Virus record (IMG/VR): IMGVR_UViG_3300029305_006387
Coordinates: 3,221 to 67,220 of that record
Direction: 5' to 3' (one strand)
Source of the DNA: a virus
Lineage: Duplodnaviria > Caudoviricetes
DNA length: 64,000 nucleotides
A model generated the notes under the pieces. That model made no database searches. It saw only the letters and a list, made by a program, of their open reading frames with translations, and was not told the DNA's origin. How positions within the stretch are numbered: position 1 is the first letter of the stretch; each line of letters begins with the position of its first letter. Shown here in pieces: positions 4,610 through 33,992 of the stretch. The position numbers and the translations under genes are program-made.

Positions 4610-4621
4610 AGTTCATTCTCC

Positions 4622-4912
4622 TTATGCTTGCGCCCAATTCGGTTTATAATAACCGCCGAGTAATTCCCAAAGCGCAACCCGACAGTCATCTCTCGTTTGC
4701 GTGTTGTCAATAAACGCATATTTCTTTCTGCCGTACTTTTCAAACGTGAGCTTGTTGTGGTTGAGAATCTCGATTCCCGTTTTCATACGGATTGCCCGTT
4801 TGAGTTGGTTATAGCCGATATATTCAGGCAATCCCCGGAAGAGCGTTCCGTCGATGGTTAAGTTTGCGTAGTAAACGCCGCCGTCCTGTACAATTTCACA
4901 AGTCCATTTCAT
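4622..4912 (-). CDS. hypothetical phage protein
   Basis: ORF with SD in operon. Confidence 0.6.
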   Translation of the reverse strand: MKWTCEIVQDGGVYYANLTIDGTLFRGLPEYIGYNQLKRAIRMKTGIEILNHNKLTFEKYGRKKYAFIDNTQTRDDCRVALWELLGGYYKPNWAQA

Positions 4913-11280: not shown

Positions 11281-11961
11281 AAGGCTAAAAGATTTTATAA
11301 AAGGGATGCAGATATAAAAAAACAAAGTTTTTTATAATAGCTTTTTTATCTTAAAAGATTTTTATAAAATAGTATGTTATAGCGTGGAAGTGCTTTATAG
11401 AAGGCGGTTGTTCATTTCTAAAAAGCAGAGCAGGCGCGAGCCGTTTTTGCCGCCGTCAGCCATTGCAAAAAGGAACGGCAAGACCCCCGGAAAGCCTTTT
11501 TAATGCGTGAAAGTGTTTTAATAATGGTTAATTATTGCAACACTTTTCTATAAAACGGGGGTATATTTACGACTTCGTGAGTAAAAAACGAAAAGCCACT
11601 TCCGCTTATCCGCACCCCTTACCTTCTTGTTCATAAATCCTTTTCAAAACTGAAATCTCTTTCGCATTTCACTTCTTTATTTCACTTGCTCTGCCATTTC
11701 ACATTTTCATAGGGCAGGGGGGGGTATATTTCCAACCCCTGTGTTTTTCAAAGGGTAGGGGTGCTTTTAGGTGGGTATGGGGTGCGCTTGGGATGGTCGG
11801 TAGGTGGCGGGCGATAAAAGATTACTGCTAACGGGGTGAAATTGACATCTTTTTTGGTAAAGATGGTTAGTATGGTGATAATATTTCGCTACTTTATTTG
11901 CAAAAAGCCGCAAGCGGCTGACATTCTATTGTAAGAGTGAACGGCGGCGCGGGCGACCCGC

Positions 11962-26272: not shown

Positions 26273-26878
26273 ATGAAGATTATACCTTCTTTTGATAACA
26301 TAGAAAAAGGCTACTGCGTATTCGAGAAACGCGGAAAATATAAAGGATTGGACGAGAACGACATCCCGCAGTTTTCAAACCCGCTCTCATTAGATGTAAT
26401 GATTGCTCACGGTGCATTCAAAAAGCATCTCACAATAGAGATATTATTAGACAGAAAGCGGGGAAGGAGAGCGTTCTGCTTTGGTTATGATGATAAGAGA
26501 TACCCCTACACTTTTGAATATTCGCAAGCAGGGTACGACGAAATGCTCAAAAAGATTGAAAGCGTGTTGCGCGACGACTTGCGGCGCATAACAGAATTGT
26601 TGGATGATATTTCCGCGCCACAACTATTCGCCAAATATTGCCACGAAAACAACGGGCGAGAAAGCGATAAAGAACGGAATAAACGGTATCTCATTCTTGG
26701 AAATATGTACAAGGTTGAGAACGTTGAAATGGGGCAGAGCAGTACGAGTATTTCATTGCGCGGAATAAAAGGCTCTTTTAATAGCGTGAGCTTCAATTTC
26801 TTTGTAATGATTGACGGGGAATACAAAGAACACGATATTTACAAGGATAAAAAATACAATCCGTATTTGCGAGGATAA
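26273..26878 (+). CDS. hypothetical protein
   Basis: 201 aa ORF in operon. Confidence 0.6.
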   Translation: MKIIPSFDNIEKGYCVFEKRGKYKGLDENDIPQFSNPLSLDVMIAHGAFKKHLTIEILLDRKRGRRAFCFGYDDKRYPYTFEYSQAGYDEMLKKIESVLRDDLRRITELLDDISAPQLFAKYCHENNGRESDKERNKRYLILGNMYKVENVEMGQSSTSISLRGIKGSFNSVSFNFFVMIDGEYKEHDIYKDKKYNPYLRG

Positions 26879-26879
26879 T

Positions 26880-27551
26880 ATGAAAAAGACGAAAATTGAT
26901 TGGTGCGACTGCACAGTAAATCCCGTTGTTGGGTGTAAAAATGGTTGCGAATACTGCTATGCAAAGAAGATTAACGATAGATTCAAAATTGTCCCCGATT
27001 TTAAGAAACCGCAATTCTTCCCGGAGCGACTGAAACAGTTTGAAAGTAAAGCTCCCAAAAGTGTATTTATCGACAGTATGAGCGATATAGCGAATTGGAA
27101 ACAGGCTTGGTTTGACGAAACTATGGAGGCAATCCATAATAATCCGCAACACCAATACATTGCCCTTACGAAAAATGTCGCCGAGTTAAGGGAAAGACTA
27201 TGGTTGTATTTCTGCAAGTACACAAAAGTTCAACCGCACAATCTCTTTGTTGGAAAGACGATTACTCAAAAAAGGAATCCTTCTCTGAAACCACTCAACG
27301 TTGACTTTTTGAGCATCGAACCGTTGTTAGAGCCGATTGATATAATTCCGTATATAGACCCGGTATTGAAAACAGTAATTATTGGGGCTGAAACGGGTAA
27401 TAGAAAACAAAAAGTAGTACCCAAAAAACAATGGGTGGAAGATATTGTGGATGCGGCTACCATTTATGGCGTGGGGATTTTTATGAAGGAAAGCCTGCGT
27501 GGAATAATGGGAGAAGATTTCAGACAAGATAAATTGCCTTGGCAACATTAG
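26880..27551 (+). CDS. DUF5131 (phage Gp37/Gp68) radical-SAM-like protein
   Basis: KTKIDWCD.TVNPVVGCKNGCEYCYA...LTKN...FLSIEPLL...VIIGAETG...FMKE. Confidence 0.9.
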   Translation: MKKTKIDWCDCTVNPVVGCKNGCEYCYAKKINDRFKIVPDFKKPQFFPERLKQFESKAPKSVFIDSMSDIANWKQAWFDETMEAIHNNPQHQYIALTKNVAELRERLWLYFCKYTKVQPHNLFVGKTITQKRNPSLKPLNVDFLSIEPLLEPIDIIPYIDPVLKTVIIGAETGNRKQKVVPKKQWVEDIVDAATIYGVGIFMKESLRGIMGEDFRQDKLPWQH

Positions 27552-27561
27552 GAGTAAGGAT

Positions 27562-27969
27562 ATGGGATTTACAAGAAATCGGTACAACGGAAAATATAAC
27601 GCAAAAAAAATAGTAATAGACGGACACGAGTTTGCGAGTAACAAGGAAGCAAAGAGATACGGGGAACTTTCGTATCTCTTGGAGCAAGGCAAAATCAAAG
27701 ACCTTGAAATCCAAAAAGAGTTTTTGCTTATTCCTACGCAAAGAGAGCCTGATATTATTGGCAAGCGTGGTGGAGTAAAAAAAGGAAAGGTAATAGAGCA
27801 ATCCGTGAAATACATAGCGGACTTTGTTTACACCGACGTAGAAACAGGGGAAATGGTTGTTGAAGATGTCAAAGGCTACCGCGACCCTGCAAGCGCGGGG
27901 ATTGTCAAGTATATCTTAAAACGAAAAATGATGCTGTATTTCCACGGAATCCGAATAAAGGAGATTTGA
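27562..27969 (+). CDS. DUF1064 family PD-(D/E)xK nuclease-like protein
   Basis: KYNAKKIVIDGHEFASNKEAKRY...YIADFVY...VVEDVKG. Confidence 0.9.
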   Translation: MGFTRNRYNGKYNAKKIVIDGHEFASNKEAKRYGELSYLLEQGKIKDLEIQKEFLLIPTQREPDIIGKRGGVKKGKVIEQSVKYIADFVYTDVETGEMVVEDVKGYRDPASAGIVKYILKRKMMLYFHGIRIKEI

Positions 27970-28380: not shown

Positions 28381-28717
28381 AAAAGAACGAGTTGCTGAAA
28401 TGGCAAAAATCATCAAGCCGTTAATGCCAAATCAATGTGGGTTTGTGGAAGAAACGGGCTGCGTTTTTGGCGACGACATAGATTGCCCCGAATGCGTAAT
28501 AGCACAAAGGCTCGTGGAAGTCGGATATAAAAAAGAGAGTGAAGTAGCAGGGGAGATTTTGGGGGAGATACGGAAAGCGGTCTTTGATTATCTGAATGTA
28601 AAAAATGAGCAACAAGCAGATAACCTTTCTTTAATTGATAGCACATTGACATACGATGTTGTAACGAAAAAGATTGCGGAGATTGCAAAACGATTGAAAT
28701 GCGAGGTGAAAGAGTGA
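28373..28717 (+). CDS. hypothetical protein
   Basis: ORF in operon. Confidence 0.55.
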   Translation: MDKKERVAEMAKIIKPLMPNQCGFVEETGCVFGDDIDCPECVIAQRLVEVGYKKESEVAGEILGEIRKAVFDYLNVKNEQQADNLSLIDSTLTYDVVTKKIAEIAKRLKCEVKE

Positions 28718-29466
28718 AATACATTGGGAGCAAGTCGAAAATTGCATCGGAGATTGTGCCGATTTTGCAGAACATCATAGACGAAAATAAAATTGAGTTT
28801 TACATAGAACCTTTTGTGGGTGGGTTTAATATTATTGATAAAATCAAATGCGTTGTGCGCATAGGCGCGGATATTGATAAGCTCGTGTGCAATCTCGTTG
28901 TTGAGTGCAGGAGAAATCCTTGTTTACTTGATACACTTAAAACGCCAACACGCGAAGAATATTACGACGTTCGGGATAATCCGCATAAATACCAAAGTTG
29001 GTACAGGGCGGCAATACTTCTCTTTGCATCGTATAATTCCCGTGTGTACGGCGGTTGCTACGGCGCGACGGCTAAAACGAAAGACGGAAAAACTCGTGAT
29101 TATTTTGAAGAAGCGAAGAGGAATTTCCAAAATCAACTTCCCAAATTAACAAATATATTCATTCAAAACTGCGATTATAGAAAAATGGTATTGCCAAAGC
29201 CCGCAAAAATGTTATTTTATTGCGACCCGCCTTACGCTGAAGGAATTGGCTACGGGGAGGGATTCAATACCGAAGAGTTTTGGGATTGGTGCAGAGAGCG
29301 AACCAAAGAAGGAAATATAGTTATTGTTAGCGAAAACTCTGCGCCGAAAGATTTTGCTTGCATTTGGGAAAAGGGCGTTGAAAGTCATTTGAATAATCGC
29401 AATAAGACGAGAAAAACAGAAAGACTTTTTATGTGTATGGATTGCACGTATGGGGTGCAGTCGTGA
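28714..29466 (+). CDS. D12-class (Dam-like) N6-adenine DNA methyltransferase
   Basis: KYIGSKSK, YIEPFVGG, FYCDPPY; intact frame. Confidence 0.9.
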   Translation: MKYIGSKSKIASEIVPILQNIIDENKIEFYIEPFVGGFNIIDKIKCVVRIGADIDKLVCNLVVECRRNPCLLDTLKTPTREEYYDVRDNPHKYQSWYRAAILLFASYNSRVYGGCYGATAKTKDGKTRDYFEEAKRNFQNQLPKLTNIFIQNCDYRKMVLPKPAKMLFYCDPPYAEGIGYGEGFNTEEFWDWCRERTKEGNIVIVSENSAPKDFACIWEKGVESHLNNRNKTRKTERLFMCMDCTYGVQS

Positions 29467-29669
29467 AATACAAGAAGGTTGACGAGTATATAACCTACAC
29501 CCCGCCCGAAGAGATTGCAATCTGTGAAGATTGTCCATACCCAACGGCGCAATGCGGCGATAGAGGGTGCAGACACTTTCTATCAGCAAAGAAAGCATTG
29601 GAAGAGAAACGAAGAAAGGAAAAACAGAACGGTGGAAAAGTACATAAACAAAATCATTCACGCGGATAG
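29463..29669 (+). CDS. small Cys-rich hypothetical protein
   Basis: ICEDCPYP...C...C. Confidence 0.5.
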   Translation: MKYKKVDEYITYTPPEEIAICEDCPYPTAQCGDRGCRHFLSAKKALEEKRRKEKQNGGKVHKQNHSRG

Positions 29670-30347
29670 CTACGACTTCATAAAAAGCATCCCCGATAAG
29701 AGTATTGATTGTATCTATACGGATATTCCCTATTTATATGTAAACGGCGGCGTTGGGCATAGTGAGTTGTGTGTGAGAACGGCGAGAAAGAAAAAAGAGC
29801 TTGAAGATATTTCAAAAGGGATTGATTACTCCATTCTCGAAGAGTTCAAAAGGGTTCTCAAAAAAGTCAACATTTTCATTTGGTGCAGTAAGATGCAACT
29901 GCTTGATATTATGAAATGGGGGGGGGGGGTTATAATACTGACTTGTTAGTATGGTGTAAGACGAACCCTACTCCGCAAACGAATAATATTTGGTTGCCCG
30001 ATTTGGAGTATTGCGTATATATGCGGGAGTTCGGCGTACCCTTAAACGACGGCTACGAGCTGAAAAGTAAATGGTATTGCTCCCCGGCGAATAAAAGCGA
30101 CAAGGATTTATTCGAGCATCCAACGATTAAACCCCTGCAACTTGTGGAACGGCATTTGCTACACGCAACGCAGCCAAACGATATTGTAGCAGATTTCTTT
30201 GTTGGGAGTGGCACGACAGCTGTCGCCTGCAAGGAGATAGGGCGGCGGTATATCGGGGTCGAAATTGAAGAAAAGTGGGTAAAGGTCGCAAACGATAGGC
30301 TGAACGGAATAGACCAAAATGGACAAATAAGCTTCTTTTTAAGATAA
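29632..30347 (+). pseudogene. beta-class N4/N6 DNA methyltransferase, frameshifted at G12 tract (phase-OFF candidate)
   Basis: IYTDIPY in 5' frame; HPTIKP and DFFVGSGTT in 3' frame; junction is G12 at 29918-29929; G13 or G10 restores one ORF. Confidence 0.85.
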
Positions 30348-30739: not shown

Positions 30740-31020
30740 AACCTTCGTTAAACAGAACGGTTTATTGCATATACGAAGATTCCATACTCACGGAAGAAGT
30801 TTACGCACTCGGTGCGGACAGCTTTATTGTTGCGAGCTTCGGGAGTATGACAAATTCCGATAGTTGGGAATATTTCTTTGAAGAGTACAATGAAACTTGG
30901 TTCACAAGCCTTGCAAGAGCAAAGAAAAAATTGAAGGCTAAATACCATAGAGAACACGGAAAATCTTGTACTTTTGTCGAGATTGAGAGCGGATATTACG
31001 AGGCTATACCTGAAAAATGA
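30727..31020 (+). CDS. hypothetical protein
   Basis: ORF overlapping both neighbours. Confidence 0.55.
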   Translation: MQVMKPSLNRTVYCIYEDSILTEEVYALGADSFIVASFGSMTNSDSWEYFFEEYNETWFTSLARAKKKLKAKYHREHGKSCTFVEIESGYYEAIPEK

Positions 31021-32158
31021 CAAATTATCGCCTTCTTAACAAATACATAACCGAAGAAATAGACCCAAACGCGGTTTACGTTCTCTCGCTTTCATACGGA
31101 AAAGATAGTCTTGCTTGCCTTGGGGCGATTGAAAAACTTGGACTTCCGCTCCACAGAATCGTACACGCAGAGGTGTGGGCTACGGACACAATCCCCGCCG
31201 ACTTGCCGCCTATGATGGAATTTAAGGCAAGGGCAGATGAAATTATAGAACGGCGTTGGGGAATAAAAGTCGAGCATATTTGCGCAACGAAGAAGGTTTG
31301 CGGGGGGGGGCAACAAAAACTCTCTTACGAGCAAATGTTCTACAATGTGCTTGAAAGTGGACAGTTTGCAGGAGCAATCAAAGGATTCCCTCTTACAATC
31401 GGAAGTTGGTGTAAAAAGCTCAAATACGAAAACGGAGCGGTTGACGTACGAAGATATATTCTATCGAGTTGTGCAATCGCGGGGGGGGCAAGGATTTACG
31501 GTTTTCCGATGCTCGGCGGGCAATGGTGCAACTCGGCTCTCAAAATGCAAGCCTTCCGACAGACTCAATCACGGGCTTTGCGACGAAATGGAGTCAATAC
31601 TGCACGGGGGAACTCAAACGAACCGCATTACGGGCTTTCCCATTTCAGTCAACCGGGGAAATTGGTGTACCCAACTCAAACAAAGGGTTTTCCAAAAGCC
31701 CGAACACGACGGGCGGTATAAATGTCGTGCAGTATCTTGGGATTGCGGCGGACGAGCCTTTAAGAATTAAAAAACACGCCAAACGAAAAGATATTATATT
31801 GCCACTTGCAGAAATTGGGTGGGATGAAGATTATTGCGGATTGTGGGCAAAATACAATGATTTGCTATCGCCGACATATACGACGGCGACAAGGGGTGGC
31901 TGTTGGTTCTGCCACAACCAAGGGGTTGAGCAATTAAGGTTATTGCGAAAGAATTACCCTGACCTTTGGGAAATCTTATTAAAGTGGGACAAGGACAGCC
32001 CGACAACGTTTAAGCCCGACGGTCATACGGTGCGGGATTTTGACAAGAGATTCGAGATGGAAGATAAAGGAATTATCAACCCAAACGACACGTTTCGGTG
32101 GAAATACCTTACAGAACCGCCGCGAATAAGGCAAATGTCTATTTTTGACATTATTTAG
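31017..32158 (+). CDS. PAPS-reductase-family (PP-loop) protein split over three overlapping frames, with cassette array
   Basis: SLSYGKDS PP-loop in frame of 31017; YLGIAADEP and RGGCWFC in frame ending 32158; G9 (31302-31310) and G8 (31481-31488) tracts between them. Confidence 0.85.
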
Positions 32159-32170
32159 GAGAAGAATAAA

Positions 32171-33121
32171 ATGTTTCAAATGAGCTTATTTGACGGCAGT
32201 CAGCCGTTCAAAATAGATAAACCTATACGCCTAATAGAGCTTTTTGCAGGGTATGGGAGTCAAGCACTTTCCCTTAAATATCTCGGCGTACCCTTTGAAC
32301 ACCACGTTATAAGCGAATGGGCGGTAAAATCCATTCAAGCGTATAAGGATATGCACTTTGCAGGCGACTCAACGGATTACTCTATGGGGATGACCGACGG
32401 GGAACTCGTGGACTTTCTCGACGGGAGAATATCAGCAGACTACAACAAGCCTATGACCCGCAAACAAATAGAGAAACATAACGGTGGCGAAAAATGGCGT
32501 AGGGCAGTTTATAACAATATGAAAGCAACGAGAAACCTTGGTTCTATAACAATGGCAAGGGGGGGGGATTTACAGGTTGAAGAAACCGACAAATACTGCT
32601 ACATACTCACCTACTCATTCCCCTGCCAAGACCTTTCTTCGGCGGGAAAGGGCGCGGGGATGGAGAAAGGGAGTGGAACGCGTAGTGGATTGCTGTGGGA
32701 GGTGGAGCGATTGCTGAAGGAATGCAACGAACTTCCGCAGGTTCTTCTAATGGAGAATGTTCCTGATGTTACGAGCAGGAAAAATATGCCGCATTTCGCG
32801 CAATGGATAGCTTTTCTCGACGAGCTTGGGTACAAAACGAAATGGGCAAATTTGAATGCAAAGGAATTTGGCATTCCGCAAAACCGAGAGAGATGCTTTG
32901 CGGTTTCTATCCTTGGGGATTACTACTACAATCACCCCACGGGGTTTCCCCTAAAAAAAAGACTGCGCGACGTCCTTCAAAAAAATGTGGACGAAAGCTA
33001 TTATCTAAAAGAAGAAACAATACAAGCGTTAAACCTTCATAAAGAACGCCACGATGCCAAGGGCAATGGATTCGGTTGGCAACCTACGACGGGGGGGGTA
33101 CGCAAAGACTATCAAGACTGA
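32171..33121 (+). CDS. C5-cytosine DNA methyltransferase, N-terminal part (motifs I-VIII)
   Basis: LIELFAGYGSQ (I), SFPCQDLS (IV), MENV (VI), PQNRERCF (VIII); G9 in frame at 32559-32567; frame ends shortly after G8 at 33091-33098. Confidence 0.9.
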   Translation: MFQMSLFDGSQPFKIDKPIRLIELFAGYGSQALSLKYLGVPFEHHVISEWAVKSIQAYKDMHFAGDSTDYSMGMTDGELVDFLDGRISADYNKPMTRKQIEKHNGGEKWRRAVYNNMKATRNLGSITMARGGDLQVEETDKYCYILTYSFPCQDLSSAGKGAGMEKGSGTRSGLLWEVERLLKECNELPQVLLMENVPDVTSRKNMPHFAQWIAFLDELGYKTKWANLNAKEFGIPQNRERCFAVSILGDYYYNHPTGFPLKKRLRDVLQKNVDESYYLKEETIQALNLHKERHDAKGNGFGWQPTTGGVRKDYQD

Positions 33122-33396
33122 AAGCGGATACAGACCAAGTTCAAACTTTGTTATTGAGCAACCAAGGGAAAACGGTAAAGAAATTCGTGGACGTCGCGGG
33201 AACGGTGATGGCGCGAGATTGGAAGGGATTTGGCAATCAAGCGATGACGGCGGTGATGGAAACAAAAAAAACAATAGTTGTGAGCCGTCCGCACGGCTAT
33301 AATCGCGGTGGGATAGAAGAAACGGATATTTTCCCGACGGTGCGAAAATCGTCAACTATGGACGGAAATAATGGAGTGGTGGAATGGAAGAAATAA
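33076..33396 (+). other. out-of-frame TRD-like cassettes of the C5 methyltransferase
   Basis: VAGTVMARDWKG...AVME and IFPTVRKSS...GVVE units; third frame carries YAKTIKTESG...FVIE. Confidence 0.65.
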
Positions 33397-33992
33397 CAAG
33401 GTGTAAGCAGGTGGCAACGCTCACCGGTGGAAAATGGGATAGGACAATAGAAGCAAGTAGGCGTGTTTATTCTATCGAACATTTAGCCCCTACCGTAACT
33501 TGCGCGGGGGGGGGGAATCAAGAAGTGAAGATTTTAGAGCCTATGATAGTTGATGATACCTATAAGGGCAGAGAGCCGAGGGTAACGGATAACAGACCAA
33601 CGATTAGAAGTAAGCGCGACGGGTTGAAAGTTTTAGAGCCTATCATCTACGACGGATTTAATCAACAGGTACGCGCCGACCAAAGTTGTGTGGGCGCACT
33701 CACAAGGAATTGTGGGGCTGACCTTAAACGAAACGGTCAAGGGGTAGTCGAACCGCAAGAAACGGGCGTTCGAGTGCGCAAACTCACAGAAAAGGAGTGC
33801 TTTCGACTTCAAGCGGTAAAAGATGAAGATTACGAAAGAGTGCGCAAAAATCAATCAAAATCGAGTAGCTATCATTTGGCAGGCGACAGTATTTGCACAG
33901 TTTGCCTTATGGCTATTTTTGGTGGTATGATGGGCGTAGATTGGAGAAAAAAGATTGACGAGTTGGTAGAGGGACTGAAAGACAATGAGTAG
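33384..33992 (+). CDS. C5-cytosine DNA methyltransferase, C-terminal part (TRD repeats plus motifs IX-X)
   Basis: RVRKLTEKECFRLQ (IX), YHLAGDSI (X); own GGAG SD and ATG; G10 in frame at 33506-33515. Confidence 0.85.
   Translation: MEEITRCKQVATLTGGKWDRTIEASRRVYSIEHLAPTVTCAGGGNQEVKILEPMIVDDTYKGREPRVTDNRPTIRSKRDGLKVLEPIIYDGFNQQVRADQSCVGALTRNCGADLKRNGQGVVEPQETGVRVRKLTEKECFRLQAVKDEDYERVRKNQSKSSSYHLAGDSICTVCLMAIFGGMMGVDWRKKIDELVEGLKDNE

Follow-up and report, generated by a model that had tools for sequence, protein, structure and literature searches.

Why should a phage gene for a C5 methyltransferase (C5 MTase) carry its putative recognition modules in two reading frames and on two ORFs, with long homopolymers placed among them? 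This question is raised by a locus of about 1.8 kb in the window, i.e., the whole stretch of 64,000 nucleotides analysed here, for which a preliminary description had proposed a split, multispecific C5 MTase with a changeable set of TRDs. All the features and coordinates that it listed were recovered in the window; of its interpretation, the two-ORF layout, the modular cassettes and the tract-length alleles were upheld, while deletion of a 99-bp segment as a switch was not. We favour, with a probability of roughly 0.6, the reading that the locus encodes a prophage-borne orphan two-chain, multi-cassette C5 MTase in which tract length would pick the cassette set of the N-side. Single-base slips would then probably change the sequences which the enzyme is able to methylate.

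Layout of the two chains

The argument rests on the following features, the switching roles being predicted ones:

32171..33121, plus strand: N-chain ORF in the G8 allele, 316 aa, with C5 MTase motifs I-VIII and a 7-residue tail
32559..32567, plus strand: G9 tract in the catalytic domain, coding ..ARGGD..; putative ON/OFF point of the N-chain
33091..33098, plus strand: G8 tract (site 1), predicted to determine in which frame the tail of the N-chain is read (as a stub, unit A or unit B)
33099..33158, plus strand: cassette A (YAKTIKTESGYRPSSNFVIE), window frame 0
33148..33261, plus strand: cassette B with its N-terminal extension (LLLSNQGK...VAGTVMARDWKGFGNQAMTAVME), frame 1
33264..33271, plus strand: A8 tract (site 2), predicted to decide whether the tail continues into cassette C
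33274..33396, plus strand: cassette C (..SRPHGYNRGGIEETDIFPTVRKSSTMDGNNGVVE), then WKK and a stop, frame 1
33373..33376, plus strand: GGAG, the C-chain Shine-Dalgarno sequence, with a 7-nt gap to the ATG at 33384
33384..33992, plus strand: C-chain ORF, 202 aa, with cassettes D, E and F (each ending xxEP) and motifs IX-X
33402..33542, plus strand: cassette D (..GGKWD..RRVYS..LAPTVTCAGGGNQEVKILEP)
33506..33515, plus strand: G10 tract (site 3), coding GGG of cassette D; putative ON/OFF point of the C-chain
33543..33641, plus strand: cassette E (33 aa, ..NRPTIRSKRDGLKVLEP), bracketed by a repeat with 99-nt spacing
33642..33755, plus strand: cassette F (IIYDGFNQQVRADQSCVGALTRNCGADLKRNGQGVVEP)
33771..33992, plus strand: motif IX (RVRKLTEKECFRLQ) to motif X (..LAGDSI..) and the C-terminal helix

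The first ORF matches PF00145 (Pfam, E 5e-42), carries motifs I, IV, VI and VIII in the proper order (ELFAGYGS, SFPCQ, MENVP and QNRER), ends seven residues past the G8 tract and is 99% identical to P0001/P0121. Motifs IX and X do follow the variable region, but on the separate ORF 33384-33992, which aligns to PF00145 positions 269-319; a profile built on 120 C-chains hits M.MpeI (2e-9) and M.HhaI (4e-5) at their motifs IX-X. Motifs I-VIII and IX-X are located on different ORFs with the split falling within the variable region, as in the two-subunit enzymes of the M.AquI type. The single polypeptide of the multispecific phage MTases is replaced here by two ORFs with a conserved stop/start overlap, and no combination of tract lengths is able to fuse them because frame 0 contains stops before 33384.

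The own Shine-Dalgarno sequence ascribed earlier to the C-terminal ORF was confirmed as GGAG at 33373-33376. The ATG at 33384 overlaps the end of the frame-1 ORF, and this junction, GAATGGAAGAA(A/C)T(A/G)A, is also present in L077, L011 and L117, which are only ~60-68% identical. Together with 453 clusters of stand-alone C-chains, these junctions indicate that the split proposed in the preliminary description is a conserved layout.

In the AlphaFold2 model of the single-chain relative P0035, the catalytic core has a pLDDT above 90, and in the AlphaFold model of the window C-chain (120 homologues) the part from motif IX to the C-terminal helix reaches 70-87. The cassette region stays below 50 in both models, so structure prediction is uninformative on the cassette folds. 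A Foldseek search against the PDB returned no significant match, and a phmmer search of the C-chain against the PDB returned none.

Cassettes in two frames and their relatives

Several TRD-like units stand in series between motifs VIII and IX: six cassettes of ~20-46 aa each, first in frames 0, 1 and 1 (A, B and C) and then in frames 0, 0 and 0 (D, E and F). That these units are real modules is indicated by the in-frame homologues which each of the six has in single-chain relatives. One of them, P0026, maps on the window in frames 2, 0, 1 and 0, in this order, and its A and B pieces share 50 nt of window DNA. The comparison of TRD content in relatives, which had been suggested as a check, showed at least 12 cassette types recurring in shuffled combinations across the 453 C-chain clusters.

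On the N-side, cassette A is 77% identical to an in-frame segment of P0026 (E 2.7e-10) and stands in frame in the natural alleles P0125, P0130, P0132 and P0133. Cassette B, whose initial codons lie over the last ones of cassette A, matches P0027 (E 7e-17) and P0062 (E 1e-21), in both of which it is in frame with the catalytic domain. For cassette C, homologous in-frame cassettes occur in P0085 (E 6e-4), P0111 (E 1e-4) and the L117 C-chain, and the ending VVEWKK* is conserved across many relatives. An extended true dual coding of the A/B region was considered and rejected: the frame-1 peptide upstream of LLLSN follows the underlying A-type cassette, so that only ~4-5 codons (FVIEQ over LLLSN) appear doubly constrained. 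In this genome alone the open alternative frames are only mildly improbable (P 0.32 and 0.09), which is a weak single-genome test.

On the C-side, the stretch from unit D to motif X aligns to the MTases of phi3T, SPbeta, rho11s and H2 (tblastn/BLASTP, 30-31% identity, E ~1e-15), cassette D itself pairing with ..KRVYSPEGLSPTLTTMGGGHREPKI.. of M.Phi3TI and with its M.Rho11sI counterpart at the same level (30-31%, E ~1e-15). Homologues of cassette E are present in L117 and many C-chains. Cassette F with motifs IX-X is 65% identical to P0056, and the cassette also occurs in P0035, P0074, L117 and dozens of C-chains.

The 13-bp repeat previously seen 99 bp apart proved to be the exact core (TTTTAGAGCCTAT) of a 22-nt, 86% repeat at 33526-33547 and 33625-33646. 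Its proposed role as a deletion switch of the TRD set found no support: none of the 15 near-identical C-chains carries the 99-bp deletion allele, and a nearly exact loss of cassette E (a 32-residue gap) is found only in distant relatives such as P0074, where it represents an evolutionary cassette indel and not a fast switch.

Homopolymer tracts and natural alleles

Four homopolymers lie within the gene, namely G9 at 32559, G8 at 33091, A8 at 33264 and G10 at 33506. The A8 run is located at 33264-33271, as previously noted, with other A8 runs of the window at 27603 and 32953, and the G9 tract of the catalytic domain and the G10 tract of unit D are additions to the earlier list. The window contains seven G runs of 8 or more, where a first-order model expects 0.48, all of them with G on the coding strand, and six of the seven fall within 3.6 kb (placement P ~2e-7). 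As in contingency loci, homopolymers of at least 7 nt are located inside a reading frame and are over-represented relative to composition. The same concentration is observed in the 1.7-Mb host MAG of L112, the closest genome found, in which 7 of 9 G tracts of at least 8 nt are inside the 4.3-kb modification module that holds this gene. In relatives ~55-70% identical, the tract positions are kept with G5-G13 at site 1 and G6-G9 at site 3; at site 2, the L013 DNA has G9, and protein relatives have Pro-Pro-Pro or Gly-Gly-Gly tails.

Simulated alleles behaved as the preliminary description had said. With G7 or G10 at site 1 the N-chain reads unit A (YAKTIK...FVIE) and, with A8, stops at 33302, and with G9 it passes through unit B (VAGTVMARDWKG...VME) into unit C (IFPTVRKSS...VVE) and terminates at 33396. 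At the G9 tract (32559) and the G10 tract (33506), the other frames run directly into stops.

Tract variants with the predicted alternative tails do exist in near-identical genomes. The allele set comprised proteins at least 90% identical from other metagenome assemblies, the tract lengths being read from consensus assemblies. Five of the six predicted N-chain tail states were seen: the stub (316 aa), B only (368 aa), A only (377 aa), A with linker and C (408 aa), and OFF (136 aa), the sole predicted state unseen among these proteins being B+C. The protein P0127 ends ..MARGGGFTG*, as expected from a frame shifted at the G9 tract 32559, and the natural tails at site 2 include ..GNKKTIV.., ..GNKKNNS..* and ..METKKQ*. 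Among 77 close relatives with a G run at site 1, 20 are stubs, 26 are in the A frame and ~20 are in the B frame. Near-identical C-chains include ON forms of 202 aa alongside OFF stubs of 47/48 aa (..CAGGGIKK* and ..CAGGGGIKK*) and 155-aa remainders beginning at VKILEP, with a GTG at 33525 as their start, the OFF alleles being about as common as the ON ones. Thus, tract length differs between near-identical genomes and alters the product, again as in contingency loci.

The closest genome, found among genome contigs, is L112, a prophage of a Clostridia MAG with 95.9% identity across 7.7 kb; viral and metagenome contigs offered only relatives of at most 68% identity, and blastn detected no related genome among annotated phages. 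All the indels against L112 whose length is not a multiple of three are at or adjoining homopolymers (G12/G10, a T beside G9, G8/G9, G8/G9 and A8/A7), with G9 at site 1 and A7 at site 2 in L112, and the other A7-A8 runs of the aligned stretch are unchanged. The L011/L077 pair mostly agrees, with 3 of 4 single- or two-base indels within the gene located in G runs. Synonymous to nonsynonymous substitutions against L112 number 19:3 in the N-chain and 16:3 in the C-chain, and both substitutions in cassette B leave the peptide unchanged when read in frame 1 and change it when read in frame 0. The MTase gene is under purifying selection and is not decaying.

Proposed selection of cassettes and its alternatives

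We suppose that the N-chain would supply the catalytic motifs I-VIII, and the C-chain, started from its own GGAG/ATG, would supply cassettes D, E and F with motifs IX-X. Cassettes A, B and C, placed between motif VIII and the C-chain start, are interleaved in two frames: frame 0 gives cassette A proper, after which the cassette B DNA is read as a Gly/Asp/Arg-rich linker, and frame 1 passes through the cassette A DNA as a linker before giving cassettes B and C proper. The N-side cassettes would have to work with motifs IX-X provided in trans. Slipped-strand mispairing at the G tract 33091 may set the ribosome frame to no N-side cassette, to A or to B, and slippage at the A tract 33264 may append cassette C or not. 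In addition, G9 at 32559 and G10 at 33506 would toggle the N-chain and the C-chain, respectively, between ON and OFF. With tails set by slippage and ON/OFF tracts combined, a phage or lysogen population would therefore be a mixture of enzymes with differing cassette sets and, probably, differing methylated motifs. A likely benefit is a hedge between escape of methylation-sensitive restriction and avoidance of methylation-dependent restriction. Since the tract alleles come from consensus assemblies, we infer switching within populations and its high rate. The assembly of two chains, a specificity for each cassette and the selective benefit are likewise inferred.

The same observations might be read otherwise. 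It is very improbable that the tracts are homopolymer miscalls of the assembly or that the gene is breaking up into a pseudogene: homopolymers are indeed error-prone, and the window allele yields only a stub N-chain, but long tracts are retained at the same codons in relatives ~55-70% identical, they are confined to the modification module of a 1.7-Mb genome, and many independent assemblies give alleles each of which reads a coherent cassette. The strong synonymous bias of substitutions and the invariance of nearby A7-A8 runs also oppose this view. We strongly doubt, too, that recoding on the G or A runs, whether RNA polymerase slips there or the ribosome shifts frame, yields all the tails in every cell, so that the enzyme would be constitutively multispecific and tract length would set the proportions. 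Defined products from all three frames after G8, and a G run which is a perfect re-pairing site for tRNA-Gly, would suit such recoding; however, length alleles are abundant at the DNA level, and no stable RNA structure was found 3' of the G8 or A8 tract (z +1.2 and -0.6, respectively). Efficient transcriptional slippage in bacteria is known mainly at A/T runs of ~9 or more, which also counts against recoding.

It is unlikely, as we see it, that the tracts are plain ON/OFF contingency switches of the whole enzyme, with specificity provided by D, E and F only and the N-side cassettes being relics or inert tails. The direct path to stops at G9 32559 and G10 33506 agrees with this view, mycoplasma C5 MTases are known to be switched ON and OFF by poly(G) tracts (PMC9465063), and an N-fragment ending after motif VIII suffices in fragment complementation (PMC3404938). 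Moreover, the OFF state of the C-chain is common, so that selection may act mainly on simple ON/OFF switching. Nevertheless, single-chain enzymes contain in-frame homologues of each of the cassettes A, B and C, cassette B changes only synonymously in its own frame, the frame-0 and frame-1 tails are both natural alleles and are conserved in relatives 60-75% identical, and the exact B/C junction retains a second homopolymer, the base of which differs from lineage to lineage.

Beyond this reading, we consider it an even bet that the locus represents a "frame-multiplexed" specificity switch, in which cassettes interleaved in two frames each read the other's DNA as a linker, so that a one-base slip would swap a module rather than kill the gene. 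With the second selector and the two ON/OFF tracts, about a dozen heritable methylation states might arise from 1.8 kb, and this design would be found in many gut phages that infect Clostridia and their relatives. In the literature searched, we found no published description of frame-switched TRDs in C5 MTases.

Relation to known systems

Which hosts are open to a phage is determined by its MTases. Should a single slip alter the methylated motif set, standing epigenetic diversity would exist within populations of phages and lysogens and could meet both methylation-sensitive and methylation-dependent (Type IV) restriction, a form of counter-defence undescribed for C5 enzymes; the locus would, in addition, clearly exemplify how selection in nature maintains two usable frames over one stretch of DNA. 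The cassettes, with at least 12 types in 453 C-chain clusters, form an extensive natural collection of compact, portable modules for C5 recognition, of interest for motif assignment in metagenomes and for engineering MTase specificity. Since gene callers fragment such genes, they are likely under-annotated as pseudogenes.

The closest parallel in phages is provided by the multispecific C5 MTases of Bacillus phages, M.SPRI, M.Phi3TI, M.Rho11sI, M.H2I and SPbeta MtbP (Wilke 1988, Trautner 1996 and Lange 1991, as reported in PMC8936443 and PMC12707154). The enzyme studied here resembles them in being an orphan C5 MTase of phage origin that combines a single catalytic core with short modules in series between motifs VIII and IX; the cassette content varies between relatives, and unit D with motifs IX-X aligns to M.Phi3TI and M.Rho11sI. 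The Bacillus phage enzymes are single polypeptides read in one frame and without homopolymer tracts, whereas the modules at our locus are distributed between two chains and two frames and would be gated by G and A tracts which vary among near-identical genomes. Two-chain C5 MTases, or fragment complementation across the variable region, are established for M.AquI, M.EcoHK31I, M.SssI and M.HhaI (PMC3404938). The split in the variable region, with motifs I-VIII and a part of that region on one chain and the rest with IX-X on the other, is that of M.AquI. M.AquI and M.EcoHK31I have one fixed specificity and no slippery tracts, and the large-chain tail has alternative readings in our case.

Phase variation of C5 MTases is known from the Mycoplasma CpG enzymes with their poly(G)/poly(GA) tracts, the length of which also varies within populations (PMC9465063). 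They share with our locus a mid-gene homopolymer which differs in length between strains and variants which truncate the product, but they switch a single specificity of a cellular gene ON or OFF, whereas two of the four tracts here would choose between cassettes in different frames. In the phasevarions formed by phase-variable Type I hsdS and Type III mod specificity genes (PMC7383803, PMC4889913), simple-sequence slippage likewise alters the methylation of a population, and in some Type I systems it changes specificity, beyond expression. These systems differ in that they produce m6A, use a separate S subunit or alternative TRD alleles of Mod, and reside in host genes with no interleaved frames coding for alternative TRDs.

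Arrangement of the modification block and the C5 methyltransferase gene

The source IMG/VR virus record comprises 67,220 bp and is rated complete, and the window represents 64 kb of it. The C5 methyltransferase (MTase) locus belongs to a block of DNA-modification genes placed directly upstream of the packaging genes:

28699-29466, D12-class adenine MTase (PF02086)
29515-30347, N6/N4 MTase, split at a G12 tract (PF01555)
31017-32158, PAPS-reductase-like gene with G9 and G8 tracts
32171-33992, C5 MTase (both ORFs)

Just upstream of the MTase block, at 26811-27551, lie a protein of DUF5131, weakly matching radical-SAM, and then DUF1064. L112, a prophage carried by a 228-kb contig in a Clostridia MAG (roe deer cecum), contains a copy of the block with 95.9% identity. 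Less similar relatives occur in MAGs from the ruminant gut as well as in assemblies of human-gut and other metagenomes.

All features listed in the preliminary description were found at the coordinates it gave. The N-chain ORF (32171-33121) carries motifs I-VIII (PF00145, E 5e-42) and stops 7 residues past the G8 tract at 33091-33098 (site 1). When tract-length alleles were constructed in silico, G7 or G10 at 33091 led into the TRD-like cassette A in window frame 0, and G9 led into frame 1, where cassette B is followed by cassette C. Whether either frame reaches C (stop at 33396) or stops early depends on the A8 run at 33264 (site 2). The C-chain ORF (33384-33992), preceded by GGAG 7 nt before its ATG, contains cassettes D, E and F in this order, each with an hhEP end, followed by motifs IX-X. 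Two further tracts within the gene are G9 at 32559 and G10 at 33506 (site 3). Where the latter is out of frame, gene callers begin a 155-aa ORF at GTG 33525, 9 nt past the G run, which could act as a weak Shine-Dalgarno sequence; the product would be a C-chain without cassette D, and this GTG is not kept in all relatives.

The window contains 7 G runs of 8 or more nucleotides versus 0.48 expected under a first-order model; all of them present G on the coding strand, and six fall within 3.6 kb. The 1.7-Mb host MAG has only nine such runs, seven of them in the modification module. The G tracts of this module are therefore not due to chance. The only G8 tract outside the block (11717-11724) lies where neither strand has a long ORF, and it is absent from the corresponding place in the G-tract list of the L112 genome. 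The D12-class adenine MTase has GGGGAGGG at 29247-29262 versus an uninterrupted G8 in L112 (96% identical), as if a single substitution had locked the tract. Thus, each of the four modification genes has a G tract in the window, in L112 or in both.

Tract-length alleles in nature

Alleles were surveyed in the 90%-identity protein clusters that hold the two ORFs of the window, whose members come from independent assemblies (JGI, ENA, Logan and NCBI).

Allelic forms of the two chains in the 90%-identity clusters
N-chain, 316 aa: stub (7-aa tail)
N-chain, 368 aa: B only (G9 + A7)
N-chain, 377 aa: A only (G10 + A8)
N-chain, 408 aa: A + linker + C (G10 + A7)
N-chain, 136 aa: shifted at the 32559 tract
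C-chain, 202 aa: ON
C-chain, 47/48-aa stub plus 155-aa remainder: shifted at the 33506 tract

The B+C tail is the sole predicted tail state with no member in these clusters. The tract-length variants that had been proposed earlier do differ, both among cluster members and between the window and L112. The latter two are separated by 318 substitutions over 7.7 kb, and all their frameshifting indels fall at or beside homopolymers (G12/G10, T beside G9, G8/G9, G8/G9 and A8/A7), the remaining A7-A8 runs of this stretch being the same in both. Outside the C5 MTase, the G12 that splits the N6/N4 MTase (29918-29929; PF01555) is G10 in L112, and in the PAPS-reductase-like gene an extra T directly follows the G9 tract (31302-31310) and the 31481-31488 tract is G8 versus G9. 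In another near-identical pair, L011/L077, three of the four single- or two-base indels within the gene are in G runs, a pattern which mostly agrees with that of the window and L112.

The change of the TRD set by repeat deletion, suggested in the preliminary description, is not supported as a switch among near-identical genomes. The repeat with 99-nt spacing was confirmed (22 nt at 86% identity around an exact core of 13 nt), but no 99-bp deletion occurs among these genomes. Since the bracketed cassette is almost exactly missing only in more distant relatives, for example in the protein P0074, this deletion seems to be a cassette indel of evolution and not a means of fast switching.

Cassettes as modules in relatives

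Comparison of the relatives indicates that each TRD-like cassette is a real module. The 120 best-matching homologues of the N-chain include proteins ending in all three frames past the Gly run at site 1: 20 are stubs, 26 follow the A frame and about 20 follow the B frame. Single-chain relatives contain the same cassettes in one frame. One of these, P0026, aligns with the window in frames 2, 0, 1 and 0, in that order; its consecutive segments match 33093-33170 (77% identity, in frame 0) and 33121-33393 (in frame 1), with a 50-nt overlap. Cassette B is matched in the proteins P0027 (E 7e-17) and P0062 (E 1e-21), cassette C has in-frame counterparts in P0085, P0111 and the locus L117, and cassettes E and F are found again in L117 and in many C-chains. 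Stand-alone C-chains form 453 clusters with at least 12 hhEP-bounded cassette types in shuffled orders. The serial TRD-like cassettes claimed earlier are borne out, with content shuffled across relatives and with unit D matching the phi3T/rho11s MTases.

Across relatives, frame 0 is constrained up to ..NF(I/V)IE and frame 1 from LLSN(Q/K)G(K/T) on, while the frame-1 peptide upstream of LLSN varies with the underlying A-type cassette. Therefore, each frame reads its own cassette properly and passes through the DNA of the other as a stop-free linker, and only a few codons seem to be constrained in both frames. Relatives with about 60-68% identity keep the stop/start overlap of the two ORFs (..VVEWKK and stop over ATGGAAGAA..) in their DNA.

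Relatives have homopolymers at the same three junctions: G5-G13 at site 1; at site 2, a G9 run in L013 DNA and Pro-Pro-Pro or Gly-Gly-Gly tails in protein relatives, compared with A8 in the window; and G6-G9 at site 3. The tract-free relatives L016, L020, L092 and L115 have the same cassettes in a single frame. Other lineages are arranged differently. For example, the variable region in L024:4617-5413 (IMGVR_UViG_3300029705_000315, about 57% identical) contains four G8 tracts, and the two examined (4617-4624 and 4772-4779) lie in a cassette's recognition segment or directly ahead of it; this relative represents a more elaborate form of the same design. In P0065 (533 aa, Logan), the frame past the site-1 Gly run enters, by eye, PAPS-reductase-like sequence with a Cys-rich C-terminus instead of TRD cassettes. 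Either the genes were truly fused or neighbours exchanged at the tract, or the assembly joined two sequences at poly-G. The single-chain L115 (JAFQXD010000006.1, 60% identical) comes from a 40-kb contig that was assigned to Methanobrevibacter sp. in a goat duodenum MAG; it is either phage DNA placed in the wrong bin or a relative carried by an archaeal virus.

Proposed switching of the enzyme and known systems

We suppose that replication slippage at four tracts would set the state of the enzyme. The tracts at 32559 and 33506, whose other frames meet immediate stops, would be ON/OFF points for the N-chain and C-chain, respectively, and those at 33091 and 33264 would decide which tail the N-chain receives (none, A, A+C, B or B+C). 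Two-chain C5 MTases (M.AquI and M.EcoHK31I) and complementation by fragments split in the variable region are established (PMC3404938); by this analogy the stub N-chain would be expected to form a working enzyme with the C-chain, so that site 1 would alter the repertoire and not kill the enzyme. We infer every step from the presence of a tail to methylation of a new motif; AlphaFold was uninformative over the cassette region.

The strongest rival to this selection of tails is plain ON/OFF switching of the enzyme, which agrees with the commonness of OFF C-chains and has a precedent in the known poly(G) ON/OFF C5 MTases of mycoplasmas (PMC9465063). Recoding at the RNA or ribosome level may instead give the tail variants, but no stimulatory structure was found and the DNA-level alleles suffice without it. 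A sequencing artefact or pseudogene decay is unlikely, given the mostly synonymous substitutions and the confinement of long G tracts to the module in the 1.7-Mb MAG. Between the window and L112, the N-domain has 19 synonymous and 3 nonsynonymous changes and the C-chain has 16 and 3, respectively, and those in cassette B are 2:0 in frame 1, both being nonsynonymous in frame 0; because of this synonymous excess we conclude from the sequences that the gene is not decaying.

A literature search found no description of the frame-switched arrangement, which does not prove that none exists. As to known systems, unit D with motifs IX-X shows 30-31% identity (E about 1e-15) to the multispecific MTases of phages phi3T and rho11s, and the SPbeta and H2 MTases are also among the best tblastn matches.
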